DNA of 50,255 nucleotides from the sequence record PV636259.1; one strand, given 5' to 3'. Position 1 is the first letter of the stretch. Every line of letters starts with the position of its first letter. A program made the translations under genes and the position numbers. This DNA is from a phage. Of this stretch, positions 281-50,255 are shown piece after piece. The notes beneath the pieces were generated by a model, which was not told the origin of the DNA, searched no databases, and was given only the letters and a program-made list of their open reading frames with translations.

Positions 281-1849
281 TTAACCCATCAGTCTAGGAT
301 TGATGAAAACAATATCATCAATGCGGCAAGTGTAGTTCATCTCTTCGAGCGTGATCAGCAGGCTGTCGATTCGCTCAGATACTTTCTGTTGACCGTTGAA
401 CGGCGTAACGTTCCGGCACTTTGCAACGATGCTATGAATAGGAGCGCGCCCTTTATTCTTCTTTGCGATCTCAGTGATAACATCAATCAGCTTACGAGAT
501 TCAGCCTCATCACCAGCATACCCGGCAGCGCTGGCAGACGACAGATAAGTCCTGGAAAGCTCATTAAAAATCATGATTGCTTCCTGCATCGTTTCAAGAT
601 CTATCTCACGATTGGAGCGGTTCGGAGATTCACCTTCCCAATTCTTTATCGTGTGAAGAACTGAAGCAATGCGCAATGCGTGCTTATCGAACTTACCGAG
701 ATGACCGCGTAGCATTGAGTGAGAGTATTTGCCACCTGCGGCGAAATCCGGCTCCATTGCCTGGCGCGCAAGGTTTAATTCACGCATAGCATTACGACTT
801 ACAGAAAGAACAACGTTTTCCTCCTTCATAATGTTGTGCACAAGTCGATAATATTTACTCACCAATCCTCGATCTACTTCCTTATACAGCGCATCACCAT
901 TTTCATCACAAAGAATACGAGTACCTAAAAGTGGTTCCTCACGAACTAAAAGGAAACGCTCAGATACGCCGATGCCTCGTTGGCCTGCGTCCATGATACC
1001 CTTGATTGTTTCATCCTGCGCAATAACGCAGATGGAACCGACCGGGCAAAGGGACAAGTTGTTATCCTGGTTGGAACGCGCTACCTCCATATGGTTTTTA
1101 TCCCACGCCTTAAGGATAAGCTCACTATTTGATTTCTTGTCTGAACCCCCATAAGTCAGGCCGAGCAATGTATTGATTGCTGTCGCCTCATCAGAGATTA
1201 CGGAGAAATGACCTTGAACAGCAGCTACCTTCGCAAGACCTTCAGGTGTAGGATCTGATACCGCGAAAACAATATCAGCCATCTTCTTGATCTTCTCTTC
1301 CAGTTTTTCTTTGTCTTCGTACAGCGCCGCCGTCGTGTTACCCTTCGGGTCGTTTTTAATTTCCTTCTCGACCTGACGTAGCTGACTGGTTAAGCGGATA
1401 CGCTCCTTTTTTCTCTCTTCGTTCAGTCGCTGAATTTCTGCACGCATAGGCGTAATCGCTGCGGAGTTAATCGCGGATTTACCTGTTGACGGTGGCTGGC
1501 TGATTACCATGTAAAGAGCGGTGGGTTGTTCTTCTCCGTGATATTGCACCCAAAACTTCCCGAGCATCGCGGCTGAGATGCACCCAATGAAATGAGCGTA
1601 CGCAGACGAAACAGGGAACTGTACAGACTCGGCCTTTGCTTTTGCATATTCGAATACCAGGTTATCGCCACCTAACGAAATCAGAGGGAACTTATCGTTG
1701 CCGCTATTGATATCGATCGGATCTTGCCAAAATGAAACTGAGTCACCATAGCTGTTTTCACGAATTGCGATTGCCACCGGATTAACTCCAGTGCTATTGG
1801 CGATCTCAATAATCTGTTGGTAATTCAGTTTTGGCTTAATATTAAACAT
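281..1849 (-). CDS. Large P-loop (Walker A-like PPSTGKS) protein, 522 aa; possible replication/recombination-associated NTPase
   Basis: Long ORF from the track; start moved to the ATG preceded by TAAGGAG (MFNIKPKL). Walker A-like motif and central K/E-rich coiled segment. Function not recognisable from sequence alone. Confidence 0.6.
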   Translation of the reverse strand: MFNIKPKLNYQQIIEIANSTGVNPVAIAIRENSYGDSVSFWQDPIDINSGNDKFPLISLGGDNLVFEYAKAKAESVQFPVSSAYAHFIGCISAAMLGKFWVQYHGEEQPTALYMVISQPPSTGKSAINSAAITPMRAEIQRLNEERKKERIRLTSQLRQVEKEIKNDPKGNTTAALYEDKEKLEEKIKKMADIVFAVSDPTPEGLAKVAAVQGHFSVISDEATAINTLLGLTYGGSDKKSNSELILKAWDKNHMEVARSNQDNNLSLCPVGSICVIAQDETIKGIMDAGQRGIGVSERFLLVREEPLLGTRILCDENGDALYKEVDRGLVSKYYRLVHNIMKEENVVLSVSRNAMRELNLARQAMEPDFAAGGKYSHSMLRGHLGKFDKHALRIASVLHTIKNWEGESPNRSNREIDLETMQEAIMIFNELSRTYLSSASAAGYAGDEAESRKLIDVITEIAKKNKGRAPIHSIVAKCRNVTPFNGQQKVSERIDSLLITLEEMNYTCRIDDIVFINPRLMG

Positions 1850-5206: not shown

Positions 5207-5268
5207 CGTGACTTCCTCTTCTGATTGGTTTATGAGCTGGACTATACACGATCTACCCGACCGAGTCG

Positions 5269-5286
5269 TTAGCGAAAAATGCTATT
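5269..5286 (-). promoter_or_regulatory. Operator/promoter motif copy (minus orientation; AATAGCATTTTTCGCTAA) upstream of the MTase-like gene
   Basis: Followed on the minus strand by TATAGT and ACCAATCAGAAGAGGAAG RBS region, then the ATG at 5206. Confidence 0.5.
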
Positions 5287-5471
5287 CCAATAATTGCTCA
5301 TTATTCCATCAATACTGGAATATCTGGAATAATTACGATCATGATTGATCTCGAATGATGAAATGTGATTGTTGCATGGTGTGCAACAGTTGGTTGATTT
5401 GTTGCTTAGATTGCAATGATTGTGAGAGGGTGGATTTGGTGTTACCCGGTTCGCCTGGTGGTCATCTCCAT

Positions 5472-5490
5472 TTTTAGCAAAACGTGCTAT
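5472..5490 (-). promoter_or_regulatory. Operator/promoter motif copy (minus orientation; ATAGCACGTTTTGCTAAAA)
   Basis: Second copy in the control region, about 200 bp upstream of the first in the minus direction. Confidence 0.45.
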
Positions 5491-5893
5491 CGATTACACT
5501 TTAACTTGTCACGATTGTAATATTTGTCTAGAATCGCACTTGTGACAAAATTACGCACTGTGACGCCCCACAATAGACATATGGATATATGTATATATAT
5601 AATATATATAGTGTTTTTTTATTTATATATATAGATAATTATATTGTAATAGTTGTGTATAGCCGTCTTACATTGTCTAGCGTACTGTTGGCATATTTCT
5701 ATCTGCATGTTTATATATACAGTACTTTTTTGAGAGTCATATATTTCTATGTGTACTCTAGACAGCTAGACAAATGTTACACAGCTTAAAATTGGCTCGC
5801 AGGCATTGACGGCCCTGCATTGCGCTGTCACAATGGCAATTGTTGACATGTTATGACACCATTTACACATCAATAGACAAATGAGGATGGATT

Positions 5894-6409
5894 ATGAGCA
5901 ATACCAATCAGGAATTAAAAATCACCGATATGATTCGACTAACCTGCGATGCAATGTACCGCGACAAAGGCATGAATGAGTTCTCTTTCGTAGCTGATGA
6001 TATGGCCCTCGAAGCAGCGCGATTCTACTTTCGGGGCCAGGAAGTAAGCGATAGCGTTCTTGAATCTGCCGCTGCCGGATGGGTGGACCAGAATCAGGGT
6101 GAGGTGGAGAAGCGATTCAAGTCTGCTTTCATTACGCCAATCATTACCAGGCACTTTTGCAAGTATGGCAAGGTGGCAAAGGTGAAGGTGGGCCGGAATG
6201 ACGCCGCAATCACAATGATAACCGTTATCGTTACAGACGAAGAGGTTCCGGTGAAGAAACGCCGCAGCCGGAAAAAAGTTAGCCTGGCCGACTGCCTGGA
6301 TTCGTTTGATGTTGATGTTAGCAAACTATCCGATAGCGAGTTAATGGTTCGTGATGTGAATGAGATCGTGCGCCAGATGAAAGCACATATTGAAAAGTGT
6401 GGACTGTAA
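5894..6409 (+). CDS. Hypothetical protein (171 aa), first gene of the rightward early operon
   Basis: Track ORF; RBS GAGGATGG before ATG. Confidence 0.6.
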   Translation: MSNTNQELKITDMIRLTCDAMYRDKGMNEFSFVADDMALEAARFYFRGQEVSDSVLESAAAGWVDQNQGEVEKRFKSAFITPIITRHFCKYGKVAKVKVGRNDAAITMITVIVTDEEVPVKKRRSRKKVSLADCLDSFDVDVSKLSDSELMVRDVNEIVRQMKAHIEKCGL

Positions 6410-6415
6410 GGAGAG

Positions 6416-6682
6416 ATGAGTATGAGCAAGATTAAGCATGACGCCCTGAAAGGTATCTTGATGCGACTAAACCCAGGCGAAGCATTCCAGCTTAACCCCG
6501 AGACATTCGGGTTCGTCGGCTTCTATAGACTTGGCCTACAGATGAGTTCGCCAGCCGATGAGCTGGTCCGGTATGTGCGAAAGCAGTTCGGCGTCGAGAT
6601 GATTAGTCTCGGAAAGGTGCAAGGCATCCAGACATTCATCTTTAAGCCAAATGAGATTCGTTGCTTCACGCTGATGAAATAG
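6416..6682 (+). CDS. Hypothetical protein (88 aa)
   Basis: Track ORF; its stop TAG is the first three bases of a motif copy. Confidence 0.55.
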   Translation: MSMSKIKHDALKGILMRLNPGEAFQLNPETFGFVGFYRLGLQMSSPADELVRYVRKQFGVEMISLGKVQGIQTFIFKPNEIRCFTLMK

Positions 6683-6698
6683 CACTTTTTGTTAAAAC
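6680..6698 (+). promoter_or_regulatory. Operator/promoter motif copy (TAGCACTTTTTGTTAAAAC) + hairpin + TATTAT + CATCGACAC leader
   Basis: Read directly; the stop codon of 6416..6682 is embedded in the motif. Confidence 0.6.
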
Positions 6699-8206: not shown

Positions 8207-8380
8207 ATGATGCGTATATTTATTTGCATGATGGCGTCGGTCGCCCTGGCTATCCTGGTAGTGTCCGGCTGTGGCGAGGTCAAAGAGCGATGCCATGAAA
8301 CCGGGAACCAGGTTACTACATTCGTGATGGTTGGCAATGTTTTACTACCAATCACATCAAATGAAATCACTTGCGAATAG
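8207..8380 (+). CDS. Small putative lipoprotein (57 aa; signal peptide with VSGC lipobox)
   Basis: MMRIFICMMASVALAILVVSGCGEV...; start set to the ATG after GGGGGCG. Stop TAG embedded in the next motif. Confidence 0.45.
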   Translation: MMRIFICMMASVALAILVVSGCGEVKERCHETGNQVTTFVMVGNVLLPITSNEITCE

Positions 8381-8396
8381 CACTTTTTGTTAAAAC
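8378..8396 (+). promoter_or_regulatory. Operator/promoter motif copy (TAGCACTTTTTGTTAAAAC) + hairpin enclosing GATATAGT + CATCGACAACG leader
   Basis: Read directly. Confidence 0.6.
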
Positions 8397-11268: not shown

Positions 11269-11487
11269 ATGGCTACTATCATGACAGCGGAAGATGCAGC
11301 GCGTGAAGCAGTGGAAGGGATGCGCCCAAATACCTCCAGAATCGCACACTACTACAATTTTGACGTGTCGGCAGTGCAGCTGGTCCATGAAATTTTAAGG
11401 CTCCCACAAGTTGATTCAGTGCGCGTGGTGACGTGCTTAAAAAATTATTTTTGCATCACTATTAAAATGAATAGCACGAATTGCTAA
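11269..11487 (+). CDS. Hypothetical protein (72 aa); last five codons (N-S-T-N-C-stop) are encoded by the motif itself
   Basis: Track ORF; ...AATAGCACGAATTGCTAA read in frame. Confidence 0.5.
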   Translation: MATIMTAEDAAREAVEGMRPNTSRIAHYYNFDVSAVQLVHEILRLPQVDSVRVVTCLKNYFCITIKMNSTNC

Positions 11488-11490
11488 AAC
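11472..11490 (+). promoter_or_regulatory. Operator/promoter motif copy (TAGCACGAATTGCTAAAAC); hairpin GGGGAAT...ATTCCCC encloses GCTATGAT
   Basis: Read directly. Confidence 0.6.
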
Positions 11491-35482: not shown

Positions 35483-36443
35483 ACATGTTTGGAGTGAAAG
35501 GAATTGGCATTGAAATGTTTATATTGAAGGGAAATTGAGCGCCGCTCTGAGTAGAATAGTTACCCACCCTTGTTCCGGGTGCGCTTCTCACGTTACCGCC
35601 GCTCATGCAAACTCCCTTGTATCGAATGTTATTATATCCACCCGTAACTCTGCATATCGTACCTGTTCTCAGTATTGGGAAAAATCCACCGCACCACTGC
35701 CAACCATCATTTATCGCCATAGTCCCGCCAAGAACGAATGGGCGTCTAACGCTTGAGAAAACGATCTGACCAGCAGGGTTACTCATAGTTATTCCTAGCC
35801 CAGGAGGTGGTGGAGTGTTATTAAATATTACGAGTTGCACGTATACGCTAGCGCCAACGTCATCAATCCCGTTATAGTTTGCATCCCTGCACCATATTGT
35901 ATTGCCGTCAGATTCAAGTGTTACGTTTGGATTATCCCACATACCGAAAGGAACGCCCTGTACTGGCAACTGAGCCTGACCGTTAACCTGAATCCCCCCA
36001 ACAAATGCAGCGCTCATCAATCTGGCGTTATTCGGTATAGCTGCGAAGTTCGTTGAATCGTTAACAAGTATCCCCTGATTTCCAGCTTGAGCGGGGAGGA
36101 TTTCGTAGCAGTTTCCATAAAATCTCATCCTCCTTCCACCGTGCCCGTTAAAATTACCTACCGTTATTCGTCCGGTTGAATCATTTACCTTCTGAAAACT
36201 AGTCAAATAATACACCTCCGGGATGTAATCCATATCGTCTATGTAGATAGCCTGAGATGGAAGGCAAAAAGCAGTAGACCCTGGACTCATTTGCAAACCA
36301 AAATCAAACACCGATCCAGATGAATCAACCCCGTCAGCCTGTATGGGTCCGCACCATGACGGTGCGCGAAGACCCGAAGTTATCTCCATTGCCGGGCGAC
36401 CGTCGTTTAGGTTTATATATATTCCTTGTCCCATAATTACCAC
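35478..36443 (-). CDS. Putative receptor-binding protein (321 aa)
   Basis: Gly/Asn-rich beta-type composition; encoded with a Cor-like lipoprotein gene, opposite to the tail operon. Positional inference. Confidence 0.5.
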   Translation of the reverse strand: MVIMGQGIYINLNDGRPAMEITSGLRAPSWCGPIQADGVDSSGSVFDFGLQMSPGSTAFCLPSQAIYIDDMDYIPEVYYLTSFQKVNDSTGRITVGNFNGHGGRRMRFYGNCYEILPAQAGNQGILVNDSTNFAAIPNNARLMSAAFVGGIQVNGQAQLPVQGVPFGMWDNPNVTLESDGNTIWCRDANYNGIDDVGASVYVQLVIFNNTPPPPGLGITMSNPAGQIVFSSVRRPFVLGGTMAINDGWQWCGGFFPILRTGTICRVTGGYNNIRYKGVCMSGGNVRSAPGTRVGNYSTQSGAQFPFNINISMPIPFTPNMY

Positions 36444-36667
36444 TCTTTAGTTTTGATTGACACCTTGCCGCTAAAGTTGCCCTGATCGTCGTCGGATGAC
36501 AGACCCTTGAATCGCATATCGATTTCGCCAGCAGGCACTTTCTGACCGTCAACGAATCGCATCATGCAAGATCCGTAAGCGTAAGTAACACAGTCGCCAT
36601 TCTTAAGATTCTGAGCGCAACCAGTCAGGATGAACGCGGCGGCGATAATGGTGATTAACTTTTTCAT
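36437..36667 (-). CDS. cor: Cor-like superinfection-exclusion outer-membrane lipoprotein (76 aa)
   Basis: MKKLITIIAAAFILTGCAQN: signal peptide with LTGC lipobox; small size; location beside the receptor-binding gene. Confidence 0.6.
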   Translation of the reverse strand: MKKLITIIAAAFILTGCAQNLKNGDCVTYAYGSCMMRFVDGQKVPAGEIDMRFKGLSSDDDQGNFSGKVSIKTKEW

Positions 36668-37193
36668 TCGTGTGTCCTCGTCTTTAGTGTGATTGCATTG
36701 TATGTCGCATTTACTTTTATTGCAATAGTTCGATTACAATTTTTTCGTGTAACAGGTGTCTATTTTTGTAACCGGGAGGTGTGTTACAAAATCGACCTCA
36801 TTCGACCGCAGGGAGATATGATAAAAACTCTATATAATATATATAGATAGATAATATTTAATTTTAGCTTTATATATATAATTATTGTTGTGTAACAGTT
36901 GTATATCGTGTAACAGGTGATTTGATTGATTCGTCAAATTTCTATCATATTTGTTCAAAATATAATCAATCTTGATTCTATTCATGGATATCTGTGTATT
37001 TCTAAGAAAAAGCGGTTACAAGTATTACGAAATAGACACCACATAAAAACAGGATTAAGCCATTGATTCTGTTGATGCTGATTGTAACTTGAGCGATATA
37101 GACACGCTATTACACACCAATTACATGTATCCGATTGACTAAACGCTGTTAATGGCTATAATGGATTCATCGTAAACGAAGGAGATAAGCGCA
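36668..37193. promoter_or_regulatory. Second AT-rich divergent control region (upstream of cor/receptor-binding genes leftward and the recombination operon rightward)
   Basis: No ORFs; GTGTAACAG repeats at 36746..36758, 36889..36898 and 36907..36919 plus inverted TGTTACAC at 36781..36788; 16-bp TATATAATATATATAG (36831..36846) identical to 5596..5611. Confidence 0.6.
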
Positions 37194-38258
37194 ATGTTCC
37201 AGGTATTCACATCAAGTCAGCTTTCTAATGACGAGTATCATAGCAACGAAGGTTGGGCGGCAGAGTATGTAAGCGGATCGAGCCTTGCAGAAATTTATCA
37301 AACTTGCCCGGCTAACTGGCGATTCAAGAAGAACGAGACTACTAAAGCGCTGGAGTTCGGTACTCAGTCGCACACTAACTTTGAGAGTCGAGATCTGTTT
37401 ACTGCAACGTATGCGCGTTGTCCTGCTCCGTCAGAGTTTAAAGATCTTATTACTTCGCAAACGGCACTGGCAGCAAAATTAAAATCTTTTGGCCTGAAAG
37501 GTACATCCGGTAAGCAGTACCCTGACCTCATCAAAATGATGGTTGATTGCGGTGAAGATCTCAATGTTCAATATCTTATTGAACTGATTGCTGAAGCTGA
37601 GGCGCGCGCTGAAGGAAAGCAACTGGTTGACGCTGATAAATATGATGCCTGTATGAAGATGAGGGCCATTCTTGAGCAAAATCCCGATCATGAAGCGTGC
37701 ATCAATAGCGAAACTGCGCAGCGTGAGATCTCAATCTTCGGTGAGATATCCGGCGTAAAGGTTAAGGTTAGACTTGACCATCTGGACTACAAAGAGAATG
37801 TACCAGGTCGTGTGCTGACTGGTTATGATGAGAATGGAGATCCGGTATTCGAAGACGTTATTTTCCCGGAAGCACTGATTATCACCGACTTCAAAACAAC
37901 GATGAGCGCAAATCCGTTGGAGTTCCCGCGCCTTGCATATAATCACGGGTATTATCTGAAAATGGCCTTGCAGCATGATCTGCTACGACGCGCAATCCAG
38001 GCTGGCGCTTTTGAAGGCAACTTCCCTGAAGATATCCCGATCGTAGTTAGATTGCTTGCGCAGGAGAAAAAAGAGCCTTATATCGCACTGGCTTACCGTA
38101 TGACTATGGAGCAAATCAGGATCGGTCGTAACCAGTACATTAGCGTAGTCCACACTTACAAGGCTTGCTCTGAAATGGATATTTGGCCTGGGTACGCTGG
38201 CGACGCAAGCGAGATCGAACTTGAAACGCCATCATGGGTGCGTTACCAAAATAAGTAA
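37194..38258 (+). CDS. PD-(D/E)xK-type exonuclease (354 aa)
   Basis: IITDFKTT matches the D-x-K-T nuclease motif; followed by Erf and SSB. Confidence 0.6.
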   Translation: MFQVFTSSQLSNDEYHSNEGWAAEYVSGSSLAEIYQTCPANWRFKKNETTKALEFGTQSHTNFESRDLFTATYARCPAPSEFKDLITSQTALAAKLKSFGLKGTSGKQYPDLIKMMVDCGEDLNVQYLIELIAEAEARAEGKQLVDADKYDACMKMRAILEQNPDHEACINSETAQREISIFGEISGVKVKVRLDHLDYKENVPGRVLTGYDENGDPVFEDVIFPEALIITDFKTTMSANPLEFPRLAYNHGYYLKMALQHDLLRRAIQAGAFEGNFPEDIPIVVRLLAQEKKEPYIALAYRMTMEQIRIGRNQYISVVHTYKACSEMDIWPGYAGDASEIELETPSWVRYQNK

Positions 38259-42416: not shown

Positions 42417-42436
42417 TTTTAACTAAAAATGCTATT
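42417..42436 (-). promoter_or_regulatory. Operator motif copy (minus orientation; AATAGCATTTTTAGTTAAAAC) forming the last six codons of the HTH gene
   Basis: N-S-I-F-S-stop is encoded by AATAGCATTTTTAGTTAA. Confidence 0.5.
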
Positions 42437-42871
42437 GGTCGTTCCGATATCTTCCTTCTTCACGACGCGCATAAATTTCTTGTTCTTGCATCGCTTCTCA
42501 AGGCACTTGCCGTTACCGTCAAACTTCAGGTCGAATCGCAACCATGCGGCACGAAATCCTTTGCACCCCTGTCGGCGGTAAGCGCGATGCGCAGCTTCAG
42601 CGCCTTGCCATGAAATCATATTTCGATCTTTCCAGCCTTGCACCGTCTGATTGCTAACTTTTAGAGCCTTTGCGCAGGCCGCAGGGCCGCCGTAATATTC
42701 GATAAGAGCATCAAGTCGCGCTCGCAGTCCGGCGCGTGTTTCTTCTTTATGAATATAGAACCCGCAACGCTGTCGAGGCTTTTTATCTTTACCGCGCCGT
42801 GTTCCGTTGTTACCATTGATGTGACGTTTATCGATTTCACCAGTTGACTCTGCGATACGTTGAATACTCAT
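42419..42871 (-). CDS. Putative DNA-binding protein with helix-turn-helix segment (150 aa)
   Basis: AKALKVSNQTVQGWKDRNMISWQGAEAA resembles Cro/CI-type HTH; basic N-terminus. Confidence 0.5.
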   Translation of the reverse strand: MSIQRIAESTGEIDKRHINGNNGTRRGKDKKPRQRCGFYIHKEETRAGLRARLDALIEYYGGPAACAKALKVSNQTVQGWKDRNMISWQGAEAAHRAYRRQGCKGFRAAWLRFDLKFDGNGKCLEKRCKNKKFMRVVKKEDIGTTNSIFS

Positions 42872-42884
42872 CTTGATTCTCCTA

Positions 42885-42904
42885 TAGCACTTTTTGCTAA
42901 AAAC
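42885..42904 (+). promoter_or_regulatory. Operator/promoter motif copy (TAGCACTTTTTGCTAAAAAC) upstream of the helicase
   Basis: Read directly in the 93-bp divergent gap. Confidence 0.55.
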
Positions 42905-42964: not shown

Positions 42965-44983
42965 GTGACAATAAACATTAAAAAACAGATTGCATTACTT
43001 GGCGAGGACTACATAAAGCGAACTCAGGAGCGATTTACTGTTGGTGAGGTTGTTCCTTATCCGTACCAGGTTGTTGCTTATGCCGAGATCGCGAAACGCC
43101 TGTCAAATTACGAGCATCCATTCTTTGTTAAAGCGTCAGTATCTGCTGGTAAGACCATCATTTTTGCTATGGTTGCAAAGCAGTGTCAGAAAATGGGCTT
43201 AAAAATGCTCGTTCTGGCTCGCCAGGGTGAGATTGTCGATCAGGATAGCGAGGAGATTGACAACTTCGGGGTAACTAACTCCATATTCTCAGCCTCATTA
43301 GGTATTAAGTCCTGCTACTTCCCGATCGTGGTTGGCTCTGAGGGTACGGTTGCAAATGGCCTCGACAATGAGTTAGCTGATTTCGTCCCGCATGTAATTG
43401 GGATCGACGAATGTCACCAGGTGGATTGGGAAGACCTTGCGCAAGCCATTGAGGGCAAGGAAACAATGGAACAAATGAGGGGCGAGAAGGGGAAAATCAT
43501 CATGGACGGAGATATTCCTCTGATTGGTAATGATGGAAAACCTATTCTTGGAACCAAGCGAAGCCAGTACACGATCGTAATCATGGAGATGATGCGTCGC
43601 TGTAAAGAGGTTCACGGGCATGATCTCAGAATTTTTGGAATGACGGGGTCTGAATTTCGCGGCGTTGTTCCGATTCTTGTTGAGAATCCAAAGGCGTTAG
43701 GATTCTGGCGTGAGCGCGTTACTGATATCGACACTAATTATCTTATTGAGTTTGGCTCTGTCGTTCCGACGATATTCGGCTCAACAGACGGAGTTCACTA
43801 CGATCTTGATAAGTTCAAGGCGTCTAGCGAGGACGGCGTACAGGACTTTACAGAGAAAGATATGAAGGCAATGGAAGATGAGATACTTCATGATAAATCT
43901 CTGACTCAGCGAATCATGCAAATGGTCGCAAAAAAGGCCGAAGAGCGTAACGCGGTACTGATTACATGCGCAGGGGTGCGTCACTGCAAAGAGGCGGCGG
44001 CGGCGCTTCCACCAGGAAGCACCTATGCAATCATCACTGGCGACACAGACACCAAAACGCGCAAGAAAATCTTGGACGATGTGAGGGCTGGGAAAATTAA
44101 ATACACCTTTCAGGTAATGGCGCTCACTACTGGCGTTAATGTTCCAAATTGGGATTTCAGTGTCATACTCCGCAAGATAGGCTCGCTCACTCTGTTGATT
44201 CAACTTTTGGGTAGGGGTATGCGACTGCTTAAATCCTGGCAGGTTGCTGAAGGAATGGTTAAGCAGGACCATCTGGTATGGGATTTTGCAGGTACGATGG
44301 ATGAGTTGGGCCAGCTTTATTTCGATCCGATACTTGAGCAGGCGCAATTCCAAAAGCGTTTTGAAAATGGCAAAGATCCGAAAAAATGTCCGAAATGCGG
44401 TTGCGTAAATAGCTTCTATGCTCGACGATGCGTTAATGTCATTGATGGTGAACGTTGCGATCATTTCTGGACTTCTCAGATTTGTGAGGACCAGGTTGAC
44501 GAGCGCACCGGTAAAATCCTTGTTAAAGGATGCGGTGCAGAGAATGACGTTGTGGCCCGAGTCTGTCGTTGTTGTGATGTCTCACTTGTCGATCCGAACC
44601 TGAAGTTGTCCGGTAAGGCGTACACTAAGAATGACTGGTACGAGGTAAAGAATTTTGAAGTTACGCTAACCAAAAACCAGAAAGGCATAATATACAAATA
44701 CACGCTGATTAACGACGATGGTGATGAGTTCAAGGCGTATGAAAAATTCTTCCCCGAGTCTGACTCTAAGATTTGCGGTACGCTATGGAAAACTAAAGGT
44801 GTACTTCCTCATGTGTCAGATCCTAAAATGCGTCGCTACTTTATCGGAATGAAGAACGCCATCAAGATCGTGCAGTACGCACATCATATCGCTCACCCGG
44901 TACGCGTAACTCATCGTCGCAACCAGAAGAAAGAAGATATTATCTCACGTAAAGACTTCGGTATGGAGGATATCCCGGAATGA
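42965..44983 (+). CDS. Superfamily-2 DNA helicase with C-terminal zinc-finger region (672 aa); GTG start
   Basis: Walker A SAGKTIIFAM, DEAH-like GIDECHQV, C-terminal KKCPKCGC...CRCCDVS Cys clusters. Confidence 0.75.
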   Translation: MTINIKKQIALLGEDYIKRTQERFTVGEVVPYPYQVVAYAEIAKRLSNYEHPFFVKASVSAGKTIIFAMVAKQCQKMGLKMLVLARQGEIVDQDSEEIDNFGVTNSIFSASLGIKSCYFPIVVGSEGTVANGLDNELADFVPHVIGIDECHQVDWEDLAQAIEGKETMEQMRGEKGKIIMDGDIPLIGNDGKPILGTKRSQYTIVIMEMMRRCKEVHGHDLRIFGMTGSEFRGVVPILVENPKALGFWRERVTDIDTNYLIEFGSVVPTIFGSTDGVHYDLDKFKASSEDGVQDFTEKDMKAMEDEILHDKSLTQRIMQMVAKKAEERNAVLITCAGVRHCKEAAAALPPGSTYAIITGDTDTKTRKKILDDVRAGKIKYTFQVMALTTGVNVPNWDFSVILRKIGSLTLLIQLLGRGMRLLKSWQVAEGMVKQDHLVWDFAGTMDELGQLYFDPILEQAQFQKRFENGKDPKKCPKCGCVNSFYARRCVNVIDGERCDHFWTSQICEDQVDERTGKILVKGCGAENDVVARVCRCCDVSLVDPNLKLSGKAYTKNDWYEVKNFEVTLTKNQKGIIYKYTLINDDGDEFKAYEKFFPESDSKICGTLWKTKGVLPHVSDPKMRRYFIGMKNAIKIVQYAHHIAHPVRVTHRRNQKKEDIISRKDFGMEDIPE

Positions 44984-49996: not shown

Positions 49997-50255
49997 TCAA
50001 ATTCTTCTTTCGTAAGCTGGAGCCTTGCGCACAATTCGACGTTCCGATCTATCAATGTTTCTACGTTCGCCAAACAAATCCTCATCACTCATCTCTCCAA
50101 TGTGCATCATTTCCCACGTATACCGATTGTTGTAGCCATCAATACACATCAGCTTCATCATTACCGGGCGCTTAATCTTTCCCTTGCACCAGTAAAACCC
50201 ATCCCTGCAATCAAGATAACTCTCAGTTACACAGCGTGAGCAAAACTCCTTAGAT
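49997..50255 (-). CDS. 3' part of the junction-spanning Cys-rich ORF (same gene as 1..276; 50129..50255 duplicates 1..127)
   Basis: Hand translation ...CIDGYNNRYTWEMMHIGEMSDEDLFGERRNIDRSERRIVRKAPAYERRI-stop, with the stop at 49997..49999 on the minus strand. Confidence 0.4.
   Translation of the reverse strand, partial: SKEFCSRCVTESYLDCRDGFYWCKGKIKRPVMMKLMCIDGYNNRYTWEMMHIGEMSDEDLFGERRNIDRSERRIVRKAPAYERRI
50129..50255. repeat. Terminal duplication: identical to 1..127
   Basis: Read directly. Confidence 0.9.

Follow-up and report, generated by a model that had tools for sequence, protein, structure and literature searches.

A conserved AT-rich module, present twice in the genome of a T1-like phage, as a candidate replication origin

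The sequence analysed here (PV636259.1, 50,255 nucleotides, hereafter the window) is the complete genome of a Tunavirus, a T1-like coliphage of the family Drexlerviridae. The element in question is its intergenic region at positions 36668-37193 (r2), which is flanked by the leftward gene cor and a rightward exonuclease-recombinase-SSB operon. We read r2 as a compound control region, in which predicted promoters at the edges accompany a separate and more strongly conserved module. A sister copy of this module lies in a first control region (r1, 5207-5893), at the point where the leftward and the rightward early genes diverge. The module has the look of a melting element flanked by iteron-like sites. 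Our leading interpretation, which we hold with somewhat less than even confidence, is that its two copies are candidate replication origins, possibly helped by transcription. The anatomy of the module, its conservation, the pairing of r1 with r2, the enrichment of the repeats and the predicted fold of a phage helicase were observed in this analysis and form the basis of that interpretation.

T1 belongs to the classical set of seven T phages, and to our knowledge neither its replication origin nor its early transcription signals have ever been mapped. According to two recent genome papers, a search for an origin had no success (PMC11447400, PMC7718038). In the accessible literature we found no T1 origin, no transcription map, no transcript-start data for T1-like phages and no replication intermediates, and neither the module pair nor any origin for T1-like phages is described there. 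This kind of element, whether an origin or an early control region, is known; the paired, co-evolving instance in a classical phage is new.

The centre of r2 is an AT-rich core (36816-36887, plus strand) made up of ATATGATAAAAA, the 16-mer TATATAATATATATAG at 36831-36846 and TTTATATATATAATTATTG at 36869-36887. A TATAAT hexamer (36833-36838) sits inside the 16-mer. The GC content of the core is 12%, and the minimum over 80 bp was 0.125 (36800-36931), which places it among the two deepest troughs of the genome. To the left of the core, a cluster of short repeats (36747-36791) contains GTGTAACAG at 36747, TGTCTAT at 36757, which is the reverse complement of ATAGACA, TGTAAC at 36767 and TGTTACAAAA at 36782; the positional equivalents of this cluster in r1 were located at 5505-5550. 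To the right, an inner block (36888-36950) carries two copies of GTGTAACAG spaced 18 bp apart (36890 and 36908), the palindrome ATTTGA-N8-TCAAAT and TTTCTATCATAT, the inverted partner of 36816-36827. A right outer cluster follows at 37013-37121, with GTTACA at 37015, ATAGACA at 37032 and 37098, TGTAAC at 37083 and CTATTACACACCAAT at 37107-37121.

The initial annotation had reported three direct copies of GTGTAACAG in r2. An exact-match search of the whole window returned exactly three, all of them in r2, at 36747-36755, 36890-36898 and 36908-36916; the count was thus right, and each coordinate given earlier was one base too low. The inverted copy placed at 36781 did not survive, since only a 7-bp core, TGTTACA at 36782-36788, is present there, which corresponds to seven of the nine bases of the reverse complement. 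The shorter hexamer TGTAAC/GTTACA was found seven times in r2 (36748, 36767, 36783, 36891, 36909, 37015 and 37083), compared with 0.27 predicted from the rest of the genome, and none of 300 shuffles gave seven copies of any hexamer. Both orientations occur on each side of the core (+, +, - to the left; +, +, -, + to the right). The broader motif TGTNACA was likewise enriched (Poisson P ~1e-7), 7 of its 11 window sites falling in r1 and r2. ATAGACA occurs three times in r2, at 36757 on the minus strand and at 37032 and 37098, again on both sides of the core, and five of the seven window copies are in r1 or r2.

Nested inverted pairs bracket the core. These are 36816-36827 with 36939-36950, TGTTACAAAA with TTGTGTAACA, and an outer interrupted inverted repeat (36755-37040) whose arms, GGTGTCTATTTTTGTAACCG at 36755-36774 and CGGTTACAA...AAATAGACACC at 37013-37040, are 238 bp apart. 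This outer pair was the sole long-range pairing in the centroid of the single-stranded DNA fold. A large single-stranded hairpin or cruciform spanning r2 was nevertheless rejected: the folding z-score was just -2.2, and T1 has lost one arm motif without compensation. Because the left TAGAC copy disappeared from T1 with no compensating change, we read the inverted repeats as binding motifs and not as a base-paired structure.

The conservation of r2 was measured across 17 Tunavirus genomes. In the block 36827-36946 (about 120 bp), 3-17% of sites were variable, compared with 20-30% in the exonuclease gene. The AT-rich core had a variable-site fraction of 0.03-0.07 against 0.2-0.3 for that gene, and the right inner block was near-invariant. 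The core and the inner repeats are therefore more conserved than the adjoining coding sequence. In an alignment of 12 Tunavirus sequences, the motifs were invariant and the spacers of 8-22 bp between them varied. As a DNA sequence, r2 was met only in 65 Tunavirus records, and it cannot be aligned in other genera. A search for copies of r2 in E. coli genomes and plasmids, where satellites borrowing an origin might be met, found none.

The r1 sister module (5500-5800, plus strand) contains TGTCAC/TGTGACA sites, an AT-rich core with the same 16-mer, and TAGACA repeats. In pairwise alignment, r1 and r2 were collinear over ~300 bp. In order, the matched elements are a TGTnACA pair with AAAAT after it, ATATG(G)ATA, the 16-mer, TTTATATATATA, TAATTAT..TTGTGTA and, about 100 bp rightward, ATTTCTATC, which lies 107 and 99 bp from the 16-mer in the two regions. 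The ATTATTGTTGTGTA-type flank noted earlier is indeed common to r1 and r2, and the shared 16-mer was recovered as an exact match at 5596-5611 and 36831-36846. In whole-window shuffles, five matches at two or fewer mismatches were reached in 0 of 100 (mean 0.03). When the cores alone were shuffled at their own GC content of 15-18%, a shared word of at least 16 appeared in 7 of 2000 trials; the match is thus unlikely even at the AT composition of the cores, the condition under which it had been proposed that it might be dismissed as chance.

The alignment also changed how the repeats are to be seen. They had been described as a family distinct from the TGTCAC repeats of r1, but the alignment sets TGTCAC/TGTGACA of r1 against TGTAACA/TGTTACA of r2, with the central base differing. 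The suggestion of different flanking repeats under distinct regulators is not borne out either, as the repeats are positional equivalents on one TGTnACA theme and TAGACA is found in both regions. On the other hand, the pairing of the two regions itself was strengthened by the collinearity, by high within-genome alignment z-scores and by the presence of the pair in four subfamilies, and the conservation in relatives that had been asked for was found both in the near-invariant Tunavirus block and in those subfamilies.

T1, TLS, Rtp and Rogue1, which represent four Drexlerviridae subfamilies, each carry the module pair. In whole-genome scans of the window, T1, TLS and Rtp, the pair coincided with the two deepest AT troughs. 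A core layout is common to all: C/T-TATA(T)AAT, then ~20-25 bp with TTAGAGT or AGTGT, then (ATT)n(AT)n and a TG-rich stretch. All cores in the window and in these four phages point rightward. The local alignment of r1 with r2 within a genome gave z-scores of 15 for the window, 15 for T1, 18 for TLS and 41 for Rtp, whose modules share ~130 bp; r2 against r2 of another genus gave only 4-6. Because the within-genome similarity far exceeds that between genera, the two copies appear to evolve together, as is expected if both modules serve one lineage-specific factor. The flanking hexamer differs by lineage, being GTTACA in Tunavirus, Rogue1 and two further loci (L017 and L045), GATTAC in L016, and (A)GAACA or GAAACA in TLS-like phages.

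The r2 module of TLS stands between two rightward genes (tail fibre and recE) and keeps its layout, with an outer inverted pair 221-239 bp apart; the corresponding pair in r1 of the window (5516-5531 and 5766-5781) is 234 bp apart. Divergence, earlier ascribed to the two regions, is thus not a defining property, and the module is not a mere by-product of divergent promoters. In most of 46 related loci, the module centre was 304-360 bp upstream of the exonuclease ATG, and r2 adjoined the recombination genes in every genome examined. In Rogue1 (L056, 518-1147) and Rtp (L051, 28260-28658), additional inserted genes (pRha-domain and rtp46-like) separate the exonuclease gene from the r2 module, and the first inserted gene of Rogue1 has upstream a cassette with the 21-nt intergenic repeat described below instead of a TTGACT-type promoter.

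A protein that could act at these modules is encoded at the left end of the window. gp9 (284-1849, minus strand) was identified as a DUF3987 (superfamily 6) MCM-like helicase with a C-terminal winged helix (Pfam DUF3987, 3e-42; PHROG 'DNA helicase'). Its AlphaFold model has a predicted local distance difference test score (pLDDT) of 89.6, places the winged helix at residues 447-516 and found MCM subunits as its best fold matches in the PDB (Foldseek E 4.5e-5). Sequence and profile searches of the PDB with gp9 gave no match, so that only the fold search was informative. DUF3987 helicases have been treated in the literature (PMC4889955, PMC11724360), and helicase activity was demonstrated for one member (PMC11724360). 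The phage also encodes a DnaG-type primase and gp23 (42419-42871, minus strand), a Cro-like helix-turn-helix protein whose gene lies between those of the primase and gp22. The product annotated 'DNA helicase' is gp22 (42965-44983, plus strand), a RadD-like, repair-type superfamily 2 helicase, and gp9 is annotated 'putative ATPase'; the annotations thus probably assign the role of replicative helicase to the wrong gene.

From the anatomy of the modules and the MCM-like helicase together, an origin role is plausible, and we infer protein binding and melting at the modules as its steps. In this scheme, the hexamers to the left and right of the core would be bound by a DNA-binding protein of the phage, for which the winged-helix tail of gp9 is the prime candidate and gp23 the alternative. 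The core would then melt and give entry to the helicase and to the primase of the phage; transcription from the TATAAT at the left edge of the core may assist the melting, in the manner of T4 and T7 origins. gp9 is put forward only as a candidate for acting at the modules.

The layout fits the scheme of the origins of staphylococcal pathogenicity islands (SaPIs). SaPI origins contain 6-12 iterons of five or six bases round a central AT-rich region, in opposite orientations on each side, and the iterons are read by the winged helix of the self-loading Rep helicase (PMC9371898). Similarly, r2 has a central AT-rich region with at least six short repeats on both sides, the repeat sequence is lineage-specific, and the phage encodes an AAA+ helicase, of predicted fold, with a C-terminal winged helix and no separate loader. 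However, the phage helicase is DUF3987/MCM-like and not a SaPI Rep, its gene is kilobases away whereas the SaPI rep gene is adjacent to the origin, and each phage genome has two modules in which the hexamers are interspersed with a second motif, TAGACA.

Other phage origins offer further points of comparison. T4 oriF and oriG and the T7 primary origin reportedly consist of a promoter followed by a DNA unwinding element, according to work from the Kreuzer and Richardson laboratories, and these origins are not known to have flanking iteron-like hexamers. In r1, in r2 and in other genera, TATAAT likewise stands directly upstream of very AT-rich sequence, with (TA)n and (ATT)n tracts, and each genome has more than one sites of this sort, in a virulent phage that uses host RNA polymerase and has no DnaA boxes at these sites. 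Unlike the T4 and T7 origins, r2 has no recognisable -35 or activator box, a -35 being present in r1 only. SPP1 oriL/oriR and P4 ori/crr are paired origin-type elements that share initiator sites. The phage modules resemble these pairs as two distant, co-evolving non-coding elements with shared short repeats beside AT-rich DNA, but they have no sequence homology to them, and the initiators belong to other families. The TLS-type repeat GTGAACA resembles what we take to be the P4 octamer, a P4 iteron sequence that a literature search did not confirm. An AT-rich unwinding element beside repeated sites is also found in oriC/DnaA-type and lambda-type iteron origins. An oriC/DnaA-type origin was ruled out, as neither r1 nor r2 has a DnaA box (TTWTNCACA; the window has two exact boxes, both elsewhere) or a GATC cluster, and r1 and r2 both lie outside genes, unlike lambda-type origins, which are inside a replication gene. 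r1 and r2 are in fact in GATC-free stretches: 5347-6364 (1017 bp, the longest of the window) and 36570-37276 (706 bp, the fourth-longest) span the r1 core and the whole of r2, in a genome with a mean of one GATC per ~197 bp and an encoded Dam methylase.

If the modules are origins, they would serve as a model, in a bacterial virus, of how an MCM-like helicase recognises an origin. The wider proposal, that T1-like phages have two co-evolving, promoter-fronted origins, each with an AT-rich melting element between short lineage-specific repeats, at which an MCM-like helicase loads itself through its winged-helix tail, is a possibility that we consider rather doubtful. If true, it would supply the first origin to be defined in a bacterial virus for a helicase of the MCM type (DUF3987) and show where replication of the classical phage T1 begins. 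If the modules are instead early promoters with operators, the start of the T1 gene-expression programme would be defined. Either way, the modules are useful as landmarks when the many T1-like phages in therapy collections are annotated or engineered, and the search for an origin is narrowed to two modules of ~300 bp, with specific bases and proteins named.

Several observations weigh against the origin reading. GC skew tracks gene orientation only and is uninformative as an origin marker. A promoter would account at least as well for the conservation of TATAAT and for cores that point rightward in both regions and all genera, and the r1 core itself is the best sigma-70 match in the genome. 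The exact-hexamer enrichment was not significant in several TLS-like lineages. The cross-lineage test for inverted pairs was marginal (6.7 nt versus 5.9 nt in shuffles) and direct repeats scored higher (7.5), so a strictly symmetric architecture is not claimed. The gp9 gene is not adjacent to either module; on the circular map, r1 is ~3.3 kb and r2 ~14 kb away from it. The C-terminal domain of gp9 was 77% identical in the lineage with the same hexamer and 64% identical in the GATTAC lineage, with 83-84% for the rest of the protein in both, but such co-variation with the hexamer type is a weak hint, since two lineages only were compared. The window shares 96-99% identity with T1 in gp9, gp23 and the primase although the r1 cassettes differ; this excludes co-variation of the repeat type with any of these proteins in that comparison and indicates that not all repeats are specific gp9 sites.

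The strongest alternative is purely transcriptional, namely that r1 and r2 are the immediate-early promoter regions of the phage, used by host RNA polymerase in its unmodified form. We give it roughly one chance in three, close behind the origin reading, and the two are not mutually exclusive. The core TATAAT would then be the -10 element of an early promoter whose initial transcribed region is AT-rich. TGTnACA and TAGACA would be operators for gp23 or for the helix-turn-helix proteins gp7 or gp10, and these phage regulators would set the timing of the recombination operon, cor and the early genes or switch them off.

The promoters at the edges of r2 bear directly on this question. Two ordinary host-type promoters are predicted there, P_cor leftward and P_exo rightward, and both are conserved in relatives. 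P_cor (36697-36725, minus strand) reads TTGCAA-17-TACAAT and matched the sigma-70 consensus at 9 of 12 positions. It lies in a block (36677-36736) that is well conserved among the 17 Tunavirus sequences, and OL960578 has an annotated promoter at the corresponding site. P_exo (37135-37162, plus strand) is near-consensus, TTGACT-16-TATAAT, with 11 of 12 positions matched, and serves the exonuclease-ERF-SSB operon; the Shine-Dalgarno sequence AGGAG (37180-37184) and the exonuclease ATG (37194) follow downstream. Its variable-site fraction was 0.10-0.13, TLS has an equivalent promoter, and the T1, SA32RD and Chapo annotations show one at the corresponding site. The only other window site with 11 of 12 matches is in the r1 core, TAGACA-18-TATAAT at 5574-5603. 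As the only sites reaching at least 11 of 12 thus fall within r1 and r2, 'promoters', as the initial annotation had proposed, is a reasonable label for the regions.

This placement of the two best sigma-70 sites favors the transcriptional account. Moreover, the cores of most genera retain TATAAT or a hexamer close to it, with a purine-rich AG(A/T)G(T) 6-8 nt later, and both cores are always co-oriented with the downstream genes. The other operons all use the 21-nt ATAGCAC...TAAAA repeat, which fits a scheme of separate early and delayed promoters. Helix-turn-helix regulators are among the proteins of the phage, and the annotators of Chapo predicted a promoter ending at the core TATAAT. However, the TATAAT of the r2 core has neither a -35, the corresponding position being CAGGGA in a variable stretch, nor a TG extension. 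The core is not needed as the promoter of the operon, because P_exo lies ~300 bp downstream of it. A putative leader of 350 nt showed no excess RNA structure (z -0.08), so a structured leader RNA was discarded, and it has no Rfam match. A near-invariant stretch of ~120 bp would be more than a promoter alone requires, as would repeats that extend over 350 bp to both sides, and the 7-bp TGTnACA is short for the operator of a helix-turn-helix dimer.

The next alternative is an element of DNA architecture or packaging, that is, a bent site or one bound by a host protein such as IHF, Fis or H-NS, a terminase or pac-like site, or a preferred entry point at which the adjoining exonuclease/ERF system would start recombination-dependent replication. 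We regard it as unlikely. The sister region r1 is close to a mapped packaging start: TLS packaging was mapped to ~5.88 kb from a HindIII site and, because the first HindIII site of the TLS record is at 5876, that record starts at the assigned pac, which is ~200 bp left of the r1 core. Several Tunavirus records also begin at window positions 5371-5440, one IHF-consensus site is present in r2 (37056-37068, minus strand, within the right outer cluster), and r2 abuts the recombination genes in all genomes examined. On the other hand, the pac assignment is outside the shared module, r2 lacks the r1-specific left part, and one packaging start per genome is reported for T1-like phages. IHF-like matches were at chance level in the whole window (4 found versus 3.1 expected), and lineage-specific repeats favor a phage-encoded over a host binder.

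That r2 encodes a product, either a protein of 46 residues or a small RNA, is very improbable. The region had been called free of open reading frames (ORFs), which is true for real genes; mechanical ORFs do exist at 36689-36850 (plus), 36830-36985 (minus) and 36926-37066 (plus, with a TTG start and 46 codons). The last of these is homologous to CPTT1_049, an annotated coding sequence in the T1 record, and it is open in 17 of 17 Tunavirus sequences with GGTG upstream of the TTG. However, variable sites were distributed 9/18/12 over codon positions 1/2/3. As codon position 2 is the most variable, the ORF is not patterned like a protein under selection, and it was judged non-coding. The window and T1 peptides differ at ~10 of 46 residues with the region DNA ~93% identical, and since r2 is not alignable in other genera the ORF could be followed in Tunavirus only. 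For an RNA product, there was no excess folding and no credible Rfam match, with a permissive E-value for r2 alone and the gathering score for the whole window; the only weak hit was a chance microRNA match (E 0.15).

A chance likeness of two AT-rich spacers that merely house promoters is scarcely credible: low-complexity (TA)n does inflate word matches, and core-only shuffles share a word of at least 12 in ~15% of cases, but the rarity of words of at least 16, the 300-bp collinearity, the near-invariant block and the same pairing in four subfamilies, with the long shared stretch of Rtp, contradict it.

The 21-nt repeats are a separate class of intergenic element. Repeats of the form aaATAGCACnnnTTGnTAAAA were reported in TLS and T1-like phages, with no function assigned (PMC11447400). 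We found ~25 window copies of the TLS repeat ATAGCACNNNTTGNTAAAA, and zero in 36668-37193. Examples are at 6679-6697, 8377-8395, 11471-11489 and 42884-42902 on the plus strand and at 4518-4500 on the minus strand, and r1 itself carries one of TLS type at 5490-5472 (minus). They resemble the r2 repeats in being intergenic, conserved and present in the same phages, and P_exo likewise carries ..TTGACTAAAC.. and, downstream, CATCGTAAAC. They differ in arrangement: the r2 repeats are 6-9 nt long, in both orientations and clustered round the AT-rich core, whereas the 21-nt repeat occurs once per operon. About 18 nt beyond each 21-nt repeat, a -10-like TATAGT is found in the loop or the 3' arm of a hairpin whose sequence varies and whose symmetry is kept; CATCGAAAC, a ribosome-binding site and ATG follow. 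The spacer between TTGNTA and TATAGT is ~21-22 bp, which is too long for host sigma-70 alone, so these may be a phage-factor-dependent promoter class. Two antisense copies were seen within the rightward block of late (head and tail) genes, at 25810-25792 and 22044-22026 (minus).

The position of r2 upstream of a recombination operon, as described earlier, was confirmed. On the left is the lipoprotein gene cor (36437-36667, minus strand; Pfam Phage_lipoprotein). On the right is the recombination operon, beginning with a RecE-like exonuclease gene (37194-38258, plus strand) and followed by the ERF recombinase and SSB.

r1 showed further features. The GenBank records of T1, TLS and Rtp have their ends at this region. 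A hairpin of 12 pairs, TGATTGTTGCATGGTGTGCAACAGTTG, is located at 5366-5392, where the T1 record begins; other Tunavirus records start at this hairpin or up to ~70 bp to its right. It may mark the packaging start, the TLS pac assignment being at the equivalent place. Within Tunavirus, r1 cassettes are of two types. The window type has TGTCAC and TAGACA repeats; in the T1 type, the repeats are GATTAACAC and ATTACGCC, and an r2-like GTGTTAACAGTTGTCTAC is present as well. Each cassette type goes together with its own type of first rightward gene (5894-6409), which is 52% identical between the types, with a diverged N-terminal half. Among loci L062-L069, L065 looks like a hybrid. At the ends of the window, an exact 127-bp direct repeat (1-127 and 50129-50255) represents a circular-assembly overlap that leaves 50128 bp of unique genome, and the gp10 homologue is split there.

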